Of a stretch of 64,000 nt of DNA, positions 1,319-39,986 are shown one piece after another. Made by a program: the position numbers and the translations under genes. The notes beneath the pieces were generated by a model. It had not been told where the DNA came from. It was given only the letters and a program-made list of their open reading frames with translations, and made no database searches. The DNA lies in assembly GCF_902652985.1 (NCBI RefSeq), contig NC_047019.1:14318097-14382096 (forward strand). The letters are read 5' to 3'. The stretch's first letter is position 1. Each line of letters begins with the position of its first letter. Source of the stretch: Pecten maximus (Eukaryota).

Positions 1319-1506
1319 GACGGCATCTTCGAATATGAATCAATGGATGAGGAAATGATGAACCGTATAATGAATACAACGTATGTGGACTGTTGTTTAC
1401 CTCACAAGTCTGAAGAAGAAGAAGAAGAAGAAGAAGAAGGAGAAGAAGAAGAAGAAGAAGAAGAAGAAGAAGAAGGAGGAGAAGAAGAAGAAGAAGATAA
1501 AGATGA
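1319..1506 (+). CDS. Putative exon of the plus-strand host gene: DGIFEYESMDEEMMNRIMNTTYVDCCLPHKS followed by a poly-Glu tract
   Basis: ttttag acceptor at 1311-1318, GTAAGT donor at 1507; only one open frame; the coding GAA microsatellite gives a poly-E run; phase does not join directly to the next exon I found. Confidence 0.4.
1412..1494 (+). repeat. (GAA)n microsatellite inside the coding exon
   Basis: Perfect GAA triplet run with GGA interruptions. Confidence 0.9.
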
Positions 1507-2312
1507 GTAAGTCTAGCTGAAAATTTTCTGAATCAAATTATTTATATTATAAAACTAGATATCAAATAAGACAGTTAAATTGCTTTAACACTTTGAAAAA
1601 CACTTGAGATACAGGTTGTGTTTAATTTACAAGAAATGCTATAAGAACTCGGATACTATTTCCAAGGTATTGTTACTGTTCTATGTCCCATGGGTTTCTT
1701 TATAAAGTGAATTTCTATAAATATACACATATATAAAAGACTGCTATATAAAGCATTATTTTTTTTAAAGATATATGGCAGCCCCTGTACAAGTAAAGAA
1801 GCTGGAACCTGAATTGTTTACTATGCCGTTGAAGATGCAGAGTGCAACTGTGAGTTTATATGAATATCTAAATTTCACACTCTGGCCACCAATTAATACT
1901 GATTTATGTTTTAACATGGATTGGCATTCAATCAACTTGTTATTTATTAAAAAAATTTGTTAAAAAAATTGTTATTTGCAAGATTGTGTTCATGTTGACA
2001 ATACATAAAAATCTGATGGCTGTATGATAATGCTTAATTTATGCTTTTGAATTTTCTTATTACAATAAAACTTGCCTAATATGACCCCATAGGGTGAGTG
2101 ACCGTTTTGGTCACATTAGACAGGTTGTCAGAAAAGTCAAAGTTTTATGCTTTGAGAAAAAGCAGAATTTCACAGGAATATACATACAGTGTCAGATTTA
2201 GCAGGGTGTTGGAAAAGTCAGATGTCGTATTAGACAGATTTTACTGTATTAGAATAAACTATATATAGGATGTATACCAACATAAAAGTTTTCTAGATCA
2301 TATAATAGTAGA

Positions 2313-5300
2313 TATAACAATGTGTCCATTTCTCAGTTTCTGATGGACTATGTACTAGATATGACTGCGTGTCCATTTGTCAGACTCTGATGGACTATGA
2401 ACTAGATATGACTGCGTGTCCATTTGTCAGACTCTGATGGACTATGTACTAGATATGACTGCGTGTCCATTTGTCAGACTGATGGACTATGTACTAGATA
2501 TGACTGCGTGTCCATTTGTCAGACTCTGATGGACTATGTACTAGATATGACTGCGTGTCCATTTGTCAGACTCTGATGGACTATGTACTAGATATGACTG
2601 CGTGTCCATTTGTCAGACTCTGATGGACTATGTACTAGATATGACTGCGTGTCCATTTGTCAGACTCTGATGGACTATGTACTAGATATGACTGCGTGTC
2701 CATTTGTCAGACTCTGATGGACTATGTACTAGATATGACTGCGTGTCCATTTGTCAGACTCTGATGGACTATGTACTAGATATGACTGTGTCCATTTGTC
2801 AGACTGATGGACTATGTACTAGATATGACTGCGTGTCCATTTGTCAGACTGATGGACTATATACTAGATATGACTGCGTGTCCATTTGTCAGACTGATGG
2901 ACTATATACTAGATATGACTGTGTGTCCATTTGTCAGACTGATGGACTATATACTAGATATGACTGCGTGTCCATTTGTCAGACTCTGATGGACTATGTA
3001 CTAGATATGACTGTGTCCATTTGTCAGACTCTGATGGACTATGTACTAGATATAAGTGTGTGTCCATTTGTCAGACTGATGGACTATGTACTAGATATGA
3101 CTATGTCCATTTGTCAGACTGATGGACTATATACTAGATATGACTGTGTGTCCATTTGTCAGACTCTGATGGACTATGTACTAGATATGACTGTGTCCAT
3201 TTGTCAGACTGATGGACTATGTACTAGATATGACTGTCCATTTGTCAGACTTTGATGGACTATGTACTAGATATGACTGTGTGTCCATTTGTCAGACTCT
3301 GATGGACTATGTACTAGATATGACTGTCCATTTGTCAGACTCTGATGGACTATGTACTAGATATGACTGTCCATTTGTCAGACTTTGATGGACTATGTAC
3401 TAGATATGACTGCGTGTCCATTTGTCAGACTGATGGACTATATACTAGATATGACTGCGTGTCCATTTGTCAGACTGATGGACTATGTACTAGATATGAC
3501 TGCGTGTCCATTTGTCAGACTCTGATGGACTATGTACTAGATATGACTGCGTGTCCATTTGTCAGACTCTGATGGACTATGTACTAGATATGACTGCGTG
3601 TCCATTTGTCAGACTCTGATGGACTATGTACTAGATATGACTGTGTCCATTTGTCAGACTGATGGACTATGTACTAGATATGACTATGTCCATTTGTCAG
3701 ACTGATGGACTATATACTAGATATGACTGTGTGTCCATTTGTCAGACTCTGATGGACTATGTACTAGATATGACTGTGTCCATTTGTCAGACTGATGGAC
3801 TATGTACTCGATATGACTGTCCATTTGTCAGACTTTGATGGACTATGTACTAGATATGACTGTGTGTCCATTTCTTTGAGACTCTGATGGACTATATACT
3901 AGATATGACTGTGTGTCCATTTGTCAGACTGATGGACTATGTACTAGATATGACAGTGTGTCCATTTGTCAGACTGATGGACTATGTACTAGATATGACC
4001 GTGTCCATTTGTCAGACTGATGGACTATATACTAGATATGACTGCGTGTCCATTTGTCAGACTGATGGACTATATACTAGATATGACTGTGTGTCCATTT
4101 GTCAGACTGATGGACTATATACTAGATATGACTGCGTGTCCATTTGTCAGACTCTGATGGACTATGTACTAGATATAAGTGTGTGTCCATTTGTCAGACT
4201 GATGGACTATGTACTAGATATGACTATGTCCATTTGTCAGACTGATGGACTATGTACTAGATATGACTGTGTGTCCATTTGTCAGACTTTGATGGACTAT
4301 GTACTAGATATGACTGTGTGTCCATTTGTTTGAGACTCTGATGGACTATATACTAGATATGACTGTGTGTCCATTTGTTTGAGACTCTGATGGACTATGT
4401 ACTAGATATGACTGCGTGTCCATTTGTCAGACTCTGATGGACTATGTACTAGATATGACTGTGTCCATTTGTCAGACTCTGATGGACTATGTACTAGATA
4501 TGACTGTGTGTCCATTTGTCAGACTGATGGACTATATACTAGATATGACTGTGTGTCCATTTGTCAGACTCTGATGGACTATGTACTAGATATGACTGTA
4601 TGTCCAGTTGTCAGACTCTGATGGACTATGAACTAGATATGACTGTCCAATTGTCAGACTGATGGACTATGTACTAGATATGACTGTGTCCATTTGTCAG
4701 ACTGATGGACTATGAACTAGATATGACTGTCCATTTGTCAGACTGTTGGACTATGTACTAGATATGACTGTGTCCATTTGTCAGACTGATGGACTATGTA
4801 CTAGATATGACTGTGTGTCCATTTGTCAGACTCTGATGGACTATGTACTAGATATGACTGTGTCCATTTGTCAGACTGTTGGACTATGTACTAGATATGA
4901 CTGTGTGTCCATTTGTCAGACTGTTGGACTATGTACTAGATATGACTGTGTCCATTTGTCAGACTCTGATGGACTATGTACTAGATATGACTGTGTCCAT
5001 TTGTCAGACTGATGGACTATGTACTAGGTATGACTGTGTCCATTTGTCAGACTCTGATGGACTATATACTAGATATGACTGTGTCCATTTGTCAGACTGA
5101 TGGACTATGTACTAGATATGACTATGTGTCCATTTGTCAGACTGTTGGACTATGTACTAGATATGACTGCGTGTCCATTTGTCAGACTCTGATGGACTAT
5201 GTACTAGATATGACTGTGTGTCCATTTGTCAGACTCTGATGGACTATGTACTAGATATGAGTATGTGTCCATTTGTCAGACTGATGGACTATGTACTAGA

Positions 5301-5395
5301 TATGACTGTGTCCATTTGTCAGACTTTGATGGACTATATACTAGATATGACTGTGTGTCCATTTGTCAGACTCTGATGGACTATGTACTAGGTAT
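2313..5395. repeat. Intronic minisatellite, unit 43-47 bp (gtgtccatttgtcagactctgatggactatgtactagatatgactgc), about 68 copies
   Basis: Regular tandem periodicity with ct and gc indel variants. Confidence 0.95.
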
Positions 5396-5498
5396 AACAT
5401 AATTTAATATATCAACTGTTAAATCATTTCATATGAGTTGGCCAGTTTGAAACATCAAATTCCATTCAAAAAATGAACGTGTTGGTGTCATGTTGCAG

Positions 5499-5599
5499 TA
5501 TGAAGAATATGCAGAACCTTGTGATATGTATGGGGATGTTGATATGGAAGTGGAACAATCAGAAGCTGCTCAAGCTGAAATTGAAATATCATATGCTAT
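5499..5599 (+). CDS. Host gene exon: YEEYAEPCDMYGDVDMEVEQSEAAQAEIEISYA
   Basis: tgttgcag acceptor, GTAAGT donor at 5600; phase-consistent with downstream exons. Confidence 0.55.
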
Positions 5600-38802: not shown

Positions 38803-38872
38803 GTATGTATCTAATCCTTGATTAATCATATAATTCATTCAATATCTGATTGAAATAGAAATAGAACGCACT

Positions 38873-38891
38873 AAAAAAAAAAAAAAAAAAA
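38873..38891. repeat. poly(A) tract of about 19 nt
   Basis: Homopolymer. Confidence 0.9.
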
Positions 38892-39179
38892 TTGAGGTTG
38901 TGATGAACAGATATACTGAGTTGTCTGACAATAATTGATAATGTTTTTCGATATATGACTGCTTACTTCATGTGATCATAGTGAGTGGCGATGTTTTCAG
39001 ACTAAAGACACACTTCAACTACATTTCCCTAGTATGTACTGTGTATAAAGACAGATTTATCTTTTCCCTAGCCAAAATGGAGAAGCCTCCATAGAGAAAT
39101 ATCTATGTATATCACTTCAGGTTATACATTCAATGACCTGTACAGTACCGCGGTAAATACAATGTTGTCTGTTTAACAG

Positions 39180-39276
39180 CTAGGAGGATGGACCAGGAGT
39201 GAGGTGGAGAAAGAACTCTTCATCAATTTGTCTGTCTGTATCAAGGCCTTAAATGCTGCTGGACTGAAGTCACTAG
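39180..39276 (+). CDS. Host gene exon: LGGWTRSEVEKELFINLSVCIKALNAAGLKSL
   Basis: gtttaacag acceptor, GTAAGT donor; in-frame with track ORF 39204. Confidence 0.55.
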
Positions 39277-39690
39277 GTAAGTTGGTGACTTTCCCAACCA
39301 TGTCGGTTTCTATGGGTACTCCTATTTCTCTTCCCAATAACAACAAGCTTTCTTGTGCATTTCACAAAATATGTCGAAAACAATTAATTAACTCCTTTTT
39401 GGTTTAATGTTGGCTTAGGTTCTATATCAACTGATTGATGGAGGAGAGTAATTTGTCATAACACTCCATAGGAAACTCACCCAATTCAACCTGTTTACAC
39501 CATTCAAACAATAACTTAATTTCTTTAAACTGAACCCCCAGTAATTTGGCAGTGAAAAAGTACATGTATAAGGCTCAATTAATTAAAATACTAGATGTGC
39601 ATTATTGAATTCATTGAGCAGGAATCTTACTATAAAATATCAATAGATATATTGCTAGATATTTTACTTTATAAAATATTAATTTTATAG

Positions 39691-39986
39691 GAATGAAGGT
39701 TGCTATGGAAATGGAGAATGTTTTGGTGACGGCGTTTGTTGTCATGTGGATACTCAAGACACTAGCACCAGAGTTATTCCCCCTGAATACTTCCGTGAGG
39801 AGTTGGTCAGACACTGCTGTGGAAGTAGCTGCAGCTGCACTCGAGATTTATGACCACGATCGGTCACTGCTGAACAAAGCCATTAATTACTGTAATCAGA
39901 TAGAGAGGGCCCATCCAGGTGTATCTTCTACCTTGGAACTGGGACCAAACTGGTTTGAAGTGGCATCAAAAATATTGGGGTTTTAG
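39691..39986 (+). CDS. Host gene terminal coding exon ending in TAG: (G)MKVAMEMENVLVTAFVVMWILKTLAPELFPLNTSVRSWSDTAVEVAAAALEIYDHDRSLLNKAINYCNQIERAHPGVSSTLELGPNWFEVASKILGF*
   Basis: ttttatag acceptor; the phase joins exactly to the previous exon (G+GA); track ORF 39693-39986. Confidence 0.6.

Follow-up and report, generated by a model that had tools for sequence, protein, structure and literature searches.

The closest described counterpart of the gene considered here is human PARP4, the poly(ADP-ribose) polymerase of vault particles. Its C-terminal MINT (major vault protein, or MVP, interacting) domain sits between MVP repeat domains near the waist of the vault, the MINT double mutation S1614A/K1618A abolishes MVP binding, and long disordered regions let the rest of the protein move in the vault lumen (PMC12280208). 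The occupation of vaults by PARP4 has been proposed to start in 'higher order organisms' (PMC12280208). The subject of this account is a gene of a mollusc, the scallop Pecten maximus, lying in a 64,000-nucleotide stretch of contig NC_047019.1 (RefSeq assembly GCF_902652985.1, positions 14,318,097 to 14,382,096 of the forward strand) that will be referred to as the window, with its first letter as position 1. The gene occupies 1319-39986 on the + strand and is very probably the 3' portion of a pectinid scallop PARP4 orthologue, the part that codes for the tether and the vault anchor. What had been an unassigned 38-kb model can accordingly be named as a PARP4 tail, and an earlier guess at an actin-regulatory scaffold corrected. 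The family is a known one, and orthologues in related scallops have already been annotated automatically as PARP4-like.

The gene model can be rebuilt from its splice sites. In a window that is AT-rich (33-43% G+C) and whose spliced genes and repeats mark it as eukaryotic, an AG acceptor with a pyrimidine tract lies directly 5' of each of the 13 exon starts listed by the original prediction, which was made from the letters of the sequence and a list of open reading frames (ORFs). Enumeration of donors and phases yields one unique ORF-preserving chain for 12 of these exons (5499 to 39986, + strand): 2148 nt coding for 715 amino acids with no internal stop, ending in TAG at 39984-39986, with all predicted introns of the GT-AG type. 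As a predicted structure, this 12-exon model is far beyond chance. The claim that the exons from 5499 on join in phase up to the TAG stop is borne out; the phase of exon 1319 does not fit exon 5499. Including exon 1319 (1319-1506) brings the total to 2336 nt, in line with the ~2.2 kb first given. What had been described, a single spliced + strand host gene with small exons and repeat-filled introns, is what we also find, and the peptide features that had been quoted are all present: poly-Glu, SEESEDDDMAFGLFDD, DGDWFQD, the 313-residue proline-rich exon, GAPPPPGGPPPVPL, the KK-rich helix and the QQAQAFTS..PPPPPP repeats, which Tandem Repeats Finder (TRF) detects as a coding 48-nt repeat. Alignment with scallop proteins (tblastn and MAFFT) covers the window exons in order, small fast-evolving ones included, and backs exons 16669, 17469, 23851, 25062, 28682, 36975, 37941, 38702, 39180 and 39691; the backing of exons 5499 and 7170 is weaker. 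The last exon shares 81% identity with its Argopecten and 73% with its Ylistrum counterpart (tblastn), and the AFTS..PPPPPP coding repeat also occurs in the proteins of both genera. Since all exons map to one protein, a homology search with the exon translation does not split them among unrelated genes. Rfam and tRNA scans of the window give no matches.

An exhaustive phmmer (HMMER) search with the last 215 residues yields 21 protein matches. The best is the Argopecten irradians 'protein mono-ADP-ribosyltransferase PARP4-like' (E 4.4e-90, 71% identity) and the second an 'uncharacterized' protein of Ylistrum balloti (E 6.7e-77). The remaining, distant matches all align at their own extreme C-termini; two of them, from Potamilus (2363 aa) and Liolophura (2150 aa), have BRCT, PARP-regulatory, VIT and VWA domains as in PARP4, to which the Potamilus protein adds the PARP catalytic domain. 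Another match is named 'PARP4 MVP-ID C-terminal domain-containing protein' in UniRef, and one bears a precomputed annotation with PF26156, an accession that we take to be that of the PARP4 MVP-ID family. A VWA5A-type protein, which had been the first thought, was given up in view of the homologues that bear names or domains, all of them PARP4. The MINT-type domain is also found at the end of proteins that lack PARP, VIT and VWA domains, among them a 281-aa Haliotis protein and a ubiquitin-domain protein; other matches ending in it are gastropod 'POM121' and 'Rpb1' (both misnamed) and models with Hsp70 or 14-3-3 fragments. Some of these non-PARP proteins may be annotation chimeras and others non-catalytic proteins targeted to the vault.

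The identity of the C-terminal globular segment, which had been seen but not named, rests on profile and fold. A profile of 17 aligned C-terminal domains matches human PARP4 residues 1573-1706 (PDB 9BW6/9BW7) with E 2.8e-20, the next match being at E 0.026; phmmer with the C-terminal 215 residues retrieves noise only from the PDB sequences (prolactin, E 0.5). An AlphaFold2 model made on the same 17-domain alignment has eight helices and a mean predicted local distance difference test (pLDDT) score of 76.8, most 10-residue blocks of the helical domain exceeding 80. Compared with the PDB by Foldseek, the model matches chain 9bw6_B best, 'Human vault cage in complex with PARP4' (probability 1.00, template-modelling score 0.63 normalised to the 136-residue target); the next matches have E-values about 100-fold worse and probabilities of at most 0.09. 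The profile match and the fold match to the human PARP4 chain together make this segment a MINT domain. Counting along the hidden Markov model alignment places S1614 at the invariant Ser of GL.SLG and K1618 at the Lys two residues past the Gly of that motif. Both are kept in the window protein, as GLKSLGMK, across the junction of exons 39180 and 39691.

Human PARP4, which we take to be UniProt Q9UKK3, likewise carries its helical domain at the very C-terminus, shares the GL.SLG.K and LELG..W motifs and has a long low-complexity, presumably disordered linker in front of MINT. It differs in that pairwise similarity is below phmmer detection and that the linker of the window protein is much more acidic and proline-rich. 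The window exons encode a linker of ~570 residues, acidic, then proline-rich, then basic and presumably disordered, followed by the ~145-residue helical domain homologous to human MINT. By analogy with the human structure, that domain would attach to the inside of the vault shell, at MVP repeat domains 3-5, and the VIT-VWA and BRCT-ART catalytic modules, presumably encoded by exons upstream of the window, would be held in the vault lumen on the long flexible linker. The MVP-interacting domain, including the two residues that are essential for MVP binding in the human protein, predates vertebrates, being present in molluscs and amphioxus, and this bears on the published suggestion that vault occupancy belongs to 'higher order organisms' (PMC12280208).

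The loci of two other scallops provide the genomic setting. Argopecten XP_069141939.1 and its isoforms and Ylistrum LOC132545763 are orthologues with the exon order of the window gene and the same MINT domain (71% and 68% identity, respectively), and their loci are similarly array-filled, at 43-45 kb (44.6 kb for the Argopecten protein, 43 kb for the gene of the 701-aa Ylistrum orthologue). They differ from the window gene in proline-repeat number and in that most of their intronic arrays are unrelated in sequence; in Ylistrum, moreover, the MGFGLF core of an acidic linker motif is lost and an exon block is triplicated. (This block of ~5 kb, two exons with their arrays, is present three times at 5949-19215 of the Ylistrum locus sequence, designated L001; the annotated protein contains an internal duplication, and one exon copy, at ~9980-10063, is unused.) Directly upstream in Ylistrum, on the same strand, is a gene for a 1243-aa BRCT-PARP-VIT-VWA protein, separated by ~7 kb if the annotated gene start is taken and by ~3 kb if the first exon is mapped. 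The pair looks like one PARP4 locus split by annotation. Because that upstream gene lies so close and on the same strand, the window probably lacks the 5' exons of PARP4; upstream exons probably exist beyond the window start, and those from BRCT to VWA most probably lie upstream of position 1. The first residues of the Argopecten protein are the last part of a VWA domain, matching positions 93-152 of the VWA_3 profile (E 0.0022, below the curated cut-off). Downstream, EGF/discoidin (F5_F8_type_C) exons at window positions 57620-61337 (+) share 53-94% protein identity with an Argopecten gene that is the one following PARP4 there. The window locus is therefore the syntenic orthologue, and best matches and conserved gene neighbourhood agree on PARP4.

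Several observations weigh against this identification. Pfam gives no match to the C-terminal domain of the window protein or to any of the 17 aligned homologues (on the 715-aa model and on exon 1319 nothing meaningful appears at E up to 1); the Pfam set that was searched appears to be without the PARP4 MVP-ID family, so that the negative is uninformative. Within the window there is no BRCT, PARP, VIT or VWA exon, and positions 1-1318 contain no detectable exon; the tie to the catalytic part in Pecten maximus is consequently one that we infer from other species. Two of the four side chains through which the human domain contacts MVP are changed (Q1682 to Ala, R1689 to Thr), and the MVP residues that touch PARP4 are reported to be conserved in vertebrates only (PMC12280208), so that the homology of the domain is shown and its binding to scallop MVP inferred. 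Finally, the 3' part in Ylistrum is annotated by NCBI as a separate 701-aa gene, and in Argopecten each of the eight isoforms begins within the VWA domain.

The last two points lend themselves to a different explanation, namely that the exons of the window constitute a gene of their own, with its own promoter, coding for linker and MINT only and thus for a non-catalytic vault-targeted protein. NCBI models the Ylistrum orthologue as just such an independent 701-aa protein, the Argopecten isoforms are without BRCT, PARP and VIT, and MINT proteins without PARP domains are common among the matches (Haliotis, 281 aa; Aplysia, 903 aa; the ubiquitin-domain protein). The Ylistrum 'start', however, falls within the triplicated exon block and has the look of an artefact of annotation, the end of the catalytic gene is no more than ~3-7 kb away, upstream and on the same strand, the Argopecten models begin in mid-VWA with no natural N-terminus, and full-length BRCT-to-MINT proteins exist in other molluscs. 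We regard a separate gene as unlikely. Far less probable is a pseudogene, a copied PARP4 3' end in decay and overrun by repeats. The extreme repeat load of the introns and the mismatch of phase between exons 1319 and 5499 might be read in that way, but across 12 exons the 715-aa ORF is unbroken and the splice sites are canonical, the MINT exon remains as close to its Argopecten counterpart as already stated, with core residues kept, synteny with Argopecten points to the orthologue rather than a dispersed copy, and the orthologous loci of two other scallops are similarly array-laden and yet have predicted protein models. An actin-regulatory scaffold of FH1/WH2/WASP type, with polyproline for profilin and an acidic-Trp element for Arp2/3, is scarcely credible, for it draws on composition only (polyproline runs and acidic stretches, one with Trp), whereas no Pfam domain related to actin, be it FH2, WH2, WH1 or another, appears at E up to 1, the significant homologues are all PARP4-like, and DGDWFQD is not C-terminal and has as its Ylistrum counterpart HVDDDRFQ, which has no Trp. 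The coordinates of the PARP4 exons and of the other features of the locus are collected in Table 1.

Table 1. Exons, linker motif, tandem arrays and mobile elements of the PARP4 locus in the window
Feature	Positions	Strand	Evidence or remark
Candidate exon DGIFEYESMDEE... with poly-Glu tract from GAA microsatellite	1319..1506	+	Good acceptor and donor; uncertain
Array, 45-bp unit, 3.1 kb, intron 1	2309..5395	.	TRF
Acidic linker exon	5499..5599	+	Donor is degenerate first unit of 25-bp minisatellite
25-bp minisatellite spanning exon 5499 donor, 0.6 kb	5593..6187	+	TRF; 10 perfect AGGTAAGT copies
Linker exon	7170..7248	+	Splice sites, ORF chain, scallop alignment
19-bp array	7545..8455	.	TRF; family recurs at 16103-16210
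Long interspersed nuclear element (LINE), intron 3: APE endonuclease, reverse transcriptase, RNase H	8866..13953	+	
Mobile 'satellite carrier', 155-bp satellite at 14055-15832 (1.8 kb)	13945..16071	.	Flanks conserved in other scallops
Linker exon with ribosomal P-stalk-tail-like motif SEESEDDDMAFGLFDD (nt 16678-16725)	16669..16763	+	tblastn to Argopecten MSEEESDEEEEMGFGLFEDD
P-stalk-like motif peptide of linker: SEESEDDDMAFGLFDDGMDF			
313-aa proline-rich exon with coding 48-nt repeat xxAxxFTSxxPPPPPP (18046-18272)	17469..18408	+	TRF, ORF, alignment
Array, 27-bp unit, ~4.6 kb, intron 5	18636..23209	.	TRF
Linker exon; last 13 nt and donor triplicated (40 bp x 2.8, 23890-23998)	23851..23907	+	
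Lys-rich linker exon	25062..25109	+	Splice sites, ORF, alignment
Array, 158-bp unit, 1.2 kb, intron 7	27128..28370	.	TRF
Linker exon DTSVSWRSCEKS, matching Argopecten SVSWRKCES	28682..28792	+	ORF, alignment
Putative non-autonomous DNA transposon	29597..30845	-	28-nt terminal inverted repeats (93%) at 29597/30818, weak HTH_Tnp_1 ORF
Array, 40-bp unit, 2.0 kb, intron 8	31206..33242	.	TRF
Array, 39-bp unit, 3.2 kb, intron 8	33539..36765	+	Orthologous to Ylistrum balloti 43-bp array
Linker exon	36975..37041	+	Splice sites, ORF, alignment
Exon with RGLHVDGDWFQD; low-confidence structure, N-terminal to MINT domain	37941..38096	+	tblastn, AlphaFold2 model
Exon with KK-rich stretch and first confident helix, N-terminal edge of MINT domain	38702..38802	+	
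MINT-domain exon (LGGWTRSEVEKE...AAGLKSLG)	39180..39276	+	Has Ser equivalent to human S1614
Last exon, MINT core (MKVAMEME...LELGPNWFEVASKILGF) and TAG	39691..39986	+	Lys equivalent to human K1618

Exon 1319 had been offered as less certain than the rest, with good reason. Its sole strong donor, GA|GTAAGT at 1506, leaves phase 2 where exon 5499 needs phase 0, its open frame is partly a by-product of the (GAA)n microsatellite, and its peptide has no significant BLASTP match to the Argopecten protein (E 18). It agrees with the Argopecten exon at 16636-16761 of that locus sequence (designated L002) only in position, in phase 0 and in the starting Asp. Since Argopecten has three or four micro-exons between the counterparts of exons 1319 and 5499, a micro-exon may be missing from the model here. 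The only candidate that a mechanical search finds within 1507-5498 (1771-1849, 79 nt) was rejected for want of homology. On its sequence, exon 1319 is plausible and uncertain.

The acidic linker contains a second likeness to a described system. The tails of the ribosomal stalk proteins P0, P1 and P2 have the consensus SD[D/E]DMGFGLFD (PMC3280276), and the linker motif SEESEDDDMAFGLFDD (DDDMAFGLFDD) matches it, an acidic run being followed by the M-G/A-F-G-L-F-D core of the P-stalk tail. The acidic 'MAFGLFDD' element copies this consensus and is not an acidic-Trp motif of the Arp2/3 kind. When a 43-aa segment containing it is compared with PDB sequences, all 17 matches are P0/P1/P2 C-termini. 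Motifs of the same kind are carried by the Argopecten PARP4-like protein (EEESDEEEEMGFGLFEDD), by a MINT protein of the pearl oyster Pinctada (DEEDDDMAFSLFDD), by the ubiquitin-domain MINT protein (DDDMGFGLFDG) and by parp4 of the amphioxus Branchiostoma (SESDEDMEFGLFDQ). A profile of five such PARP4-like motifs finds P0/P1/P2 tails in 27 out of 27 PDB matches (best E 4e-5) and passes over the full-length human PARP4 chain, which the same set contains. In Ylistrum the motif has degenerated (SESESDQDTYFDS), and the protein models of Potamilus and Liolophura lack it; it is hence not universal. It differs from a genuine stalk tail in being internal, ~640 residues before the C-terminus instead of at a free end, and the window protein has no Pfam match to Ribosomal_60s or uL10, the stalk N-terminal domain. 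By its sequence, then, the window protein would count as a mimic of the stalk P proteins and not as a member.

What such a copy might do can be outlined from the properties of the original. Translational GTPases dock on the P-stalk tail, as do ribosome-inactivating toxins, and GCN2 is activated by the stalk (PMC3280276, PMC11624264, PMC6421407, PMC6162817). It is rather doubtful, though worth stating, that the copy in the linker of invertebrate PARP4 is functional and links the vault PARP to translation factors or to toxin defence, a proposal suggested by the motif itself. If it were true, the vault PARP could capture a P-stalk-binding factor (eEF2, eEF1A or GCN2) as substrate or cargo or, alternatively, serve inside the cell as a decoy for ribosome-inactivating toxins of the ricin and Shiga types; either would be a testable connection of the vault with translation or toxin defence, lost in vertebrate PARP4. 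In the case of ricin, hydrogen bonds are formed by the last two residues of the tail peptide (PMC6822507), which argues that an internal copy would bind more weakly. A literature search found no paper linking the P-stalk tail or GFGLFD to PARP4 or vaults (one of its queries returned mostly off-topic 'vault' papers).

Minisatellites that begin on splice donors have a precedent in the human F7 gene, where the first unit of a 37-bp variable-number tandem repeat in intron 7 likewise spans the exon 7-intron boundary (PMC1557585). The scallop gene differs in that several such arrays are found in one gene and in two species, with units of 25-51 bp and up to ~60 copies. The 25-bp array of the window starts in the last nucleotides of exon 5499, whose authentic donor, GCTAT|GTAAGTGTTCTGTAT, represents the first copy of the unit ATGCTAGGTAAGTGTTCTGTATTAC in degenerate form; reading through this donor leads to TAA at 5601. 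In Ylistrum three arrays (units of 51, 43 and 38 bp; L001 15146-18138, 23104-25261 and 48167-49780) have their beginnings inside an exon or where it ends, with the exon's 3' end and donor recurring along the array, and the NCBI model places an 18-nt micro-exon inside the 43-bp array, at 23131-23148. For array starts that fall between -35 and +5 nt of a donor, a simple Poisson model predicts 0.16 in the window, where two are observed (P 0.012), and 0.21 in Ylistrum, where three are observed (P 0.0014); no donor-spanning array was seen in Argopecten. Minisatellites seeded in this way would provide tandem decoy 5' splice sites.

One array is shared between genera. The 39-bp array in intron 8 and a 43-bp array of Ylistrum (L001 40574-44391) have 87% unit identity apart from a 4-nt indel, with a unit alignment score of 43 where 300 shuffles reach 9 at most, and are ~74% identical over 3.2 kb. 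Both lie on the sense strand, in the intron that immediately precedes the orthologous exon. The unique intron sequence around them gives no blastn match between the window and Ylistrum, and the array is absent from Argopecten. An intronic minisatellite kept in two genera, along with the donor-seeded minisatellites and the P-stalk-tail mimic, may be of wider interest.

The remaining intron sequence is largely repetitive. The introns add up to 36.3 kb, of which tandem arrays make up 49% and LINE ORFs 14%; the combined 63% agrees with the earlier estimate of more than 60% for satellites and transposable elements. Outside the gene (39987-64000) arrays account for only 8.6%. Arrays take up 74% of intron sequence in Ylistrum and 38% in Argopecten; the swollen introns characterise the locus as such, in all three scallop genera, and are not a feature of protein function. 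TRF recovers all of the arrays that had been reported (3.1, 0.6, 0.9, 4.5, 2 and 3.2 kb), and the LINE is there with its enzymatic domains, along with an ORF1-like ORF that, judged from its translation, is zinc-knuckle-rich. The DNA transposon is plausible, its inverted repeats enclosing a weak HTH_Tnp_1 ORF. The 19-bp array seems to have been split by nested insertion of the LINE and the satellite carrier, since the same family flanks both. The carrier of the 155-bp satellite recurs with conserved flanks in Ylistrum (L001 36067-37055) and Argopecten (L002 10699-12362), in a different intron of the same gene in each of the three scallops, as expected of a mobile element. Just downstream of the gene, at 40408-41480, a 324-bp array shares by eye a G+C-rich core (CCCCCAGGGGC..GGGGCCAAAA) with the 158-bp array of intron 7, which points to a single satellite family present both within the gene and beyond it. 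Farther into the intergenic region, at 44276-44719 (-), an ORF matches DUF7869 (E 2e-9), and close by, at 47273-48043 (-), is a very acidic ORF of 256 aa; from their sequences, the two are suspected to be a transposon remnant.

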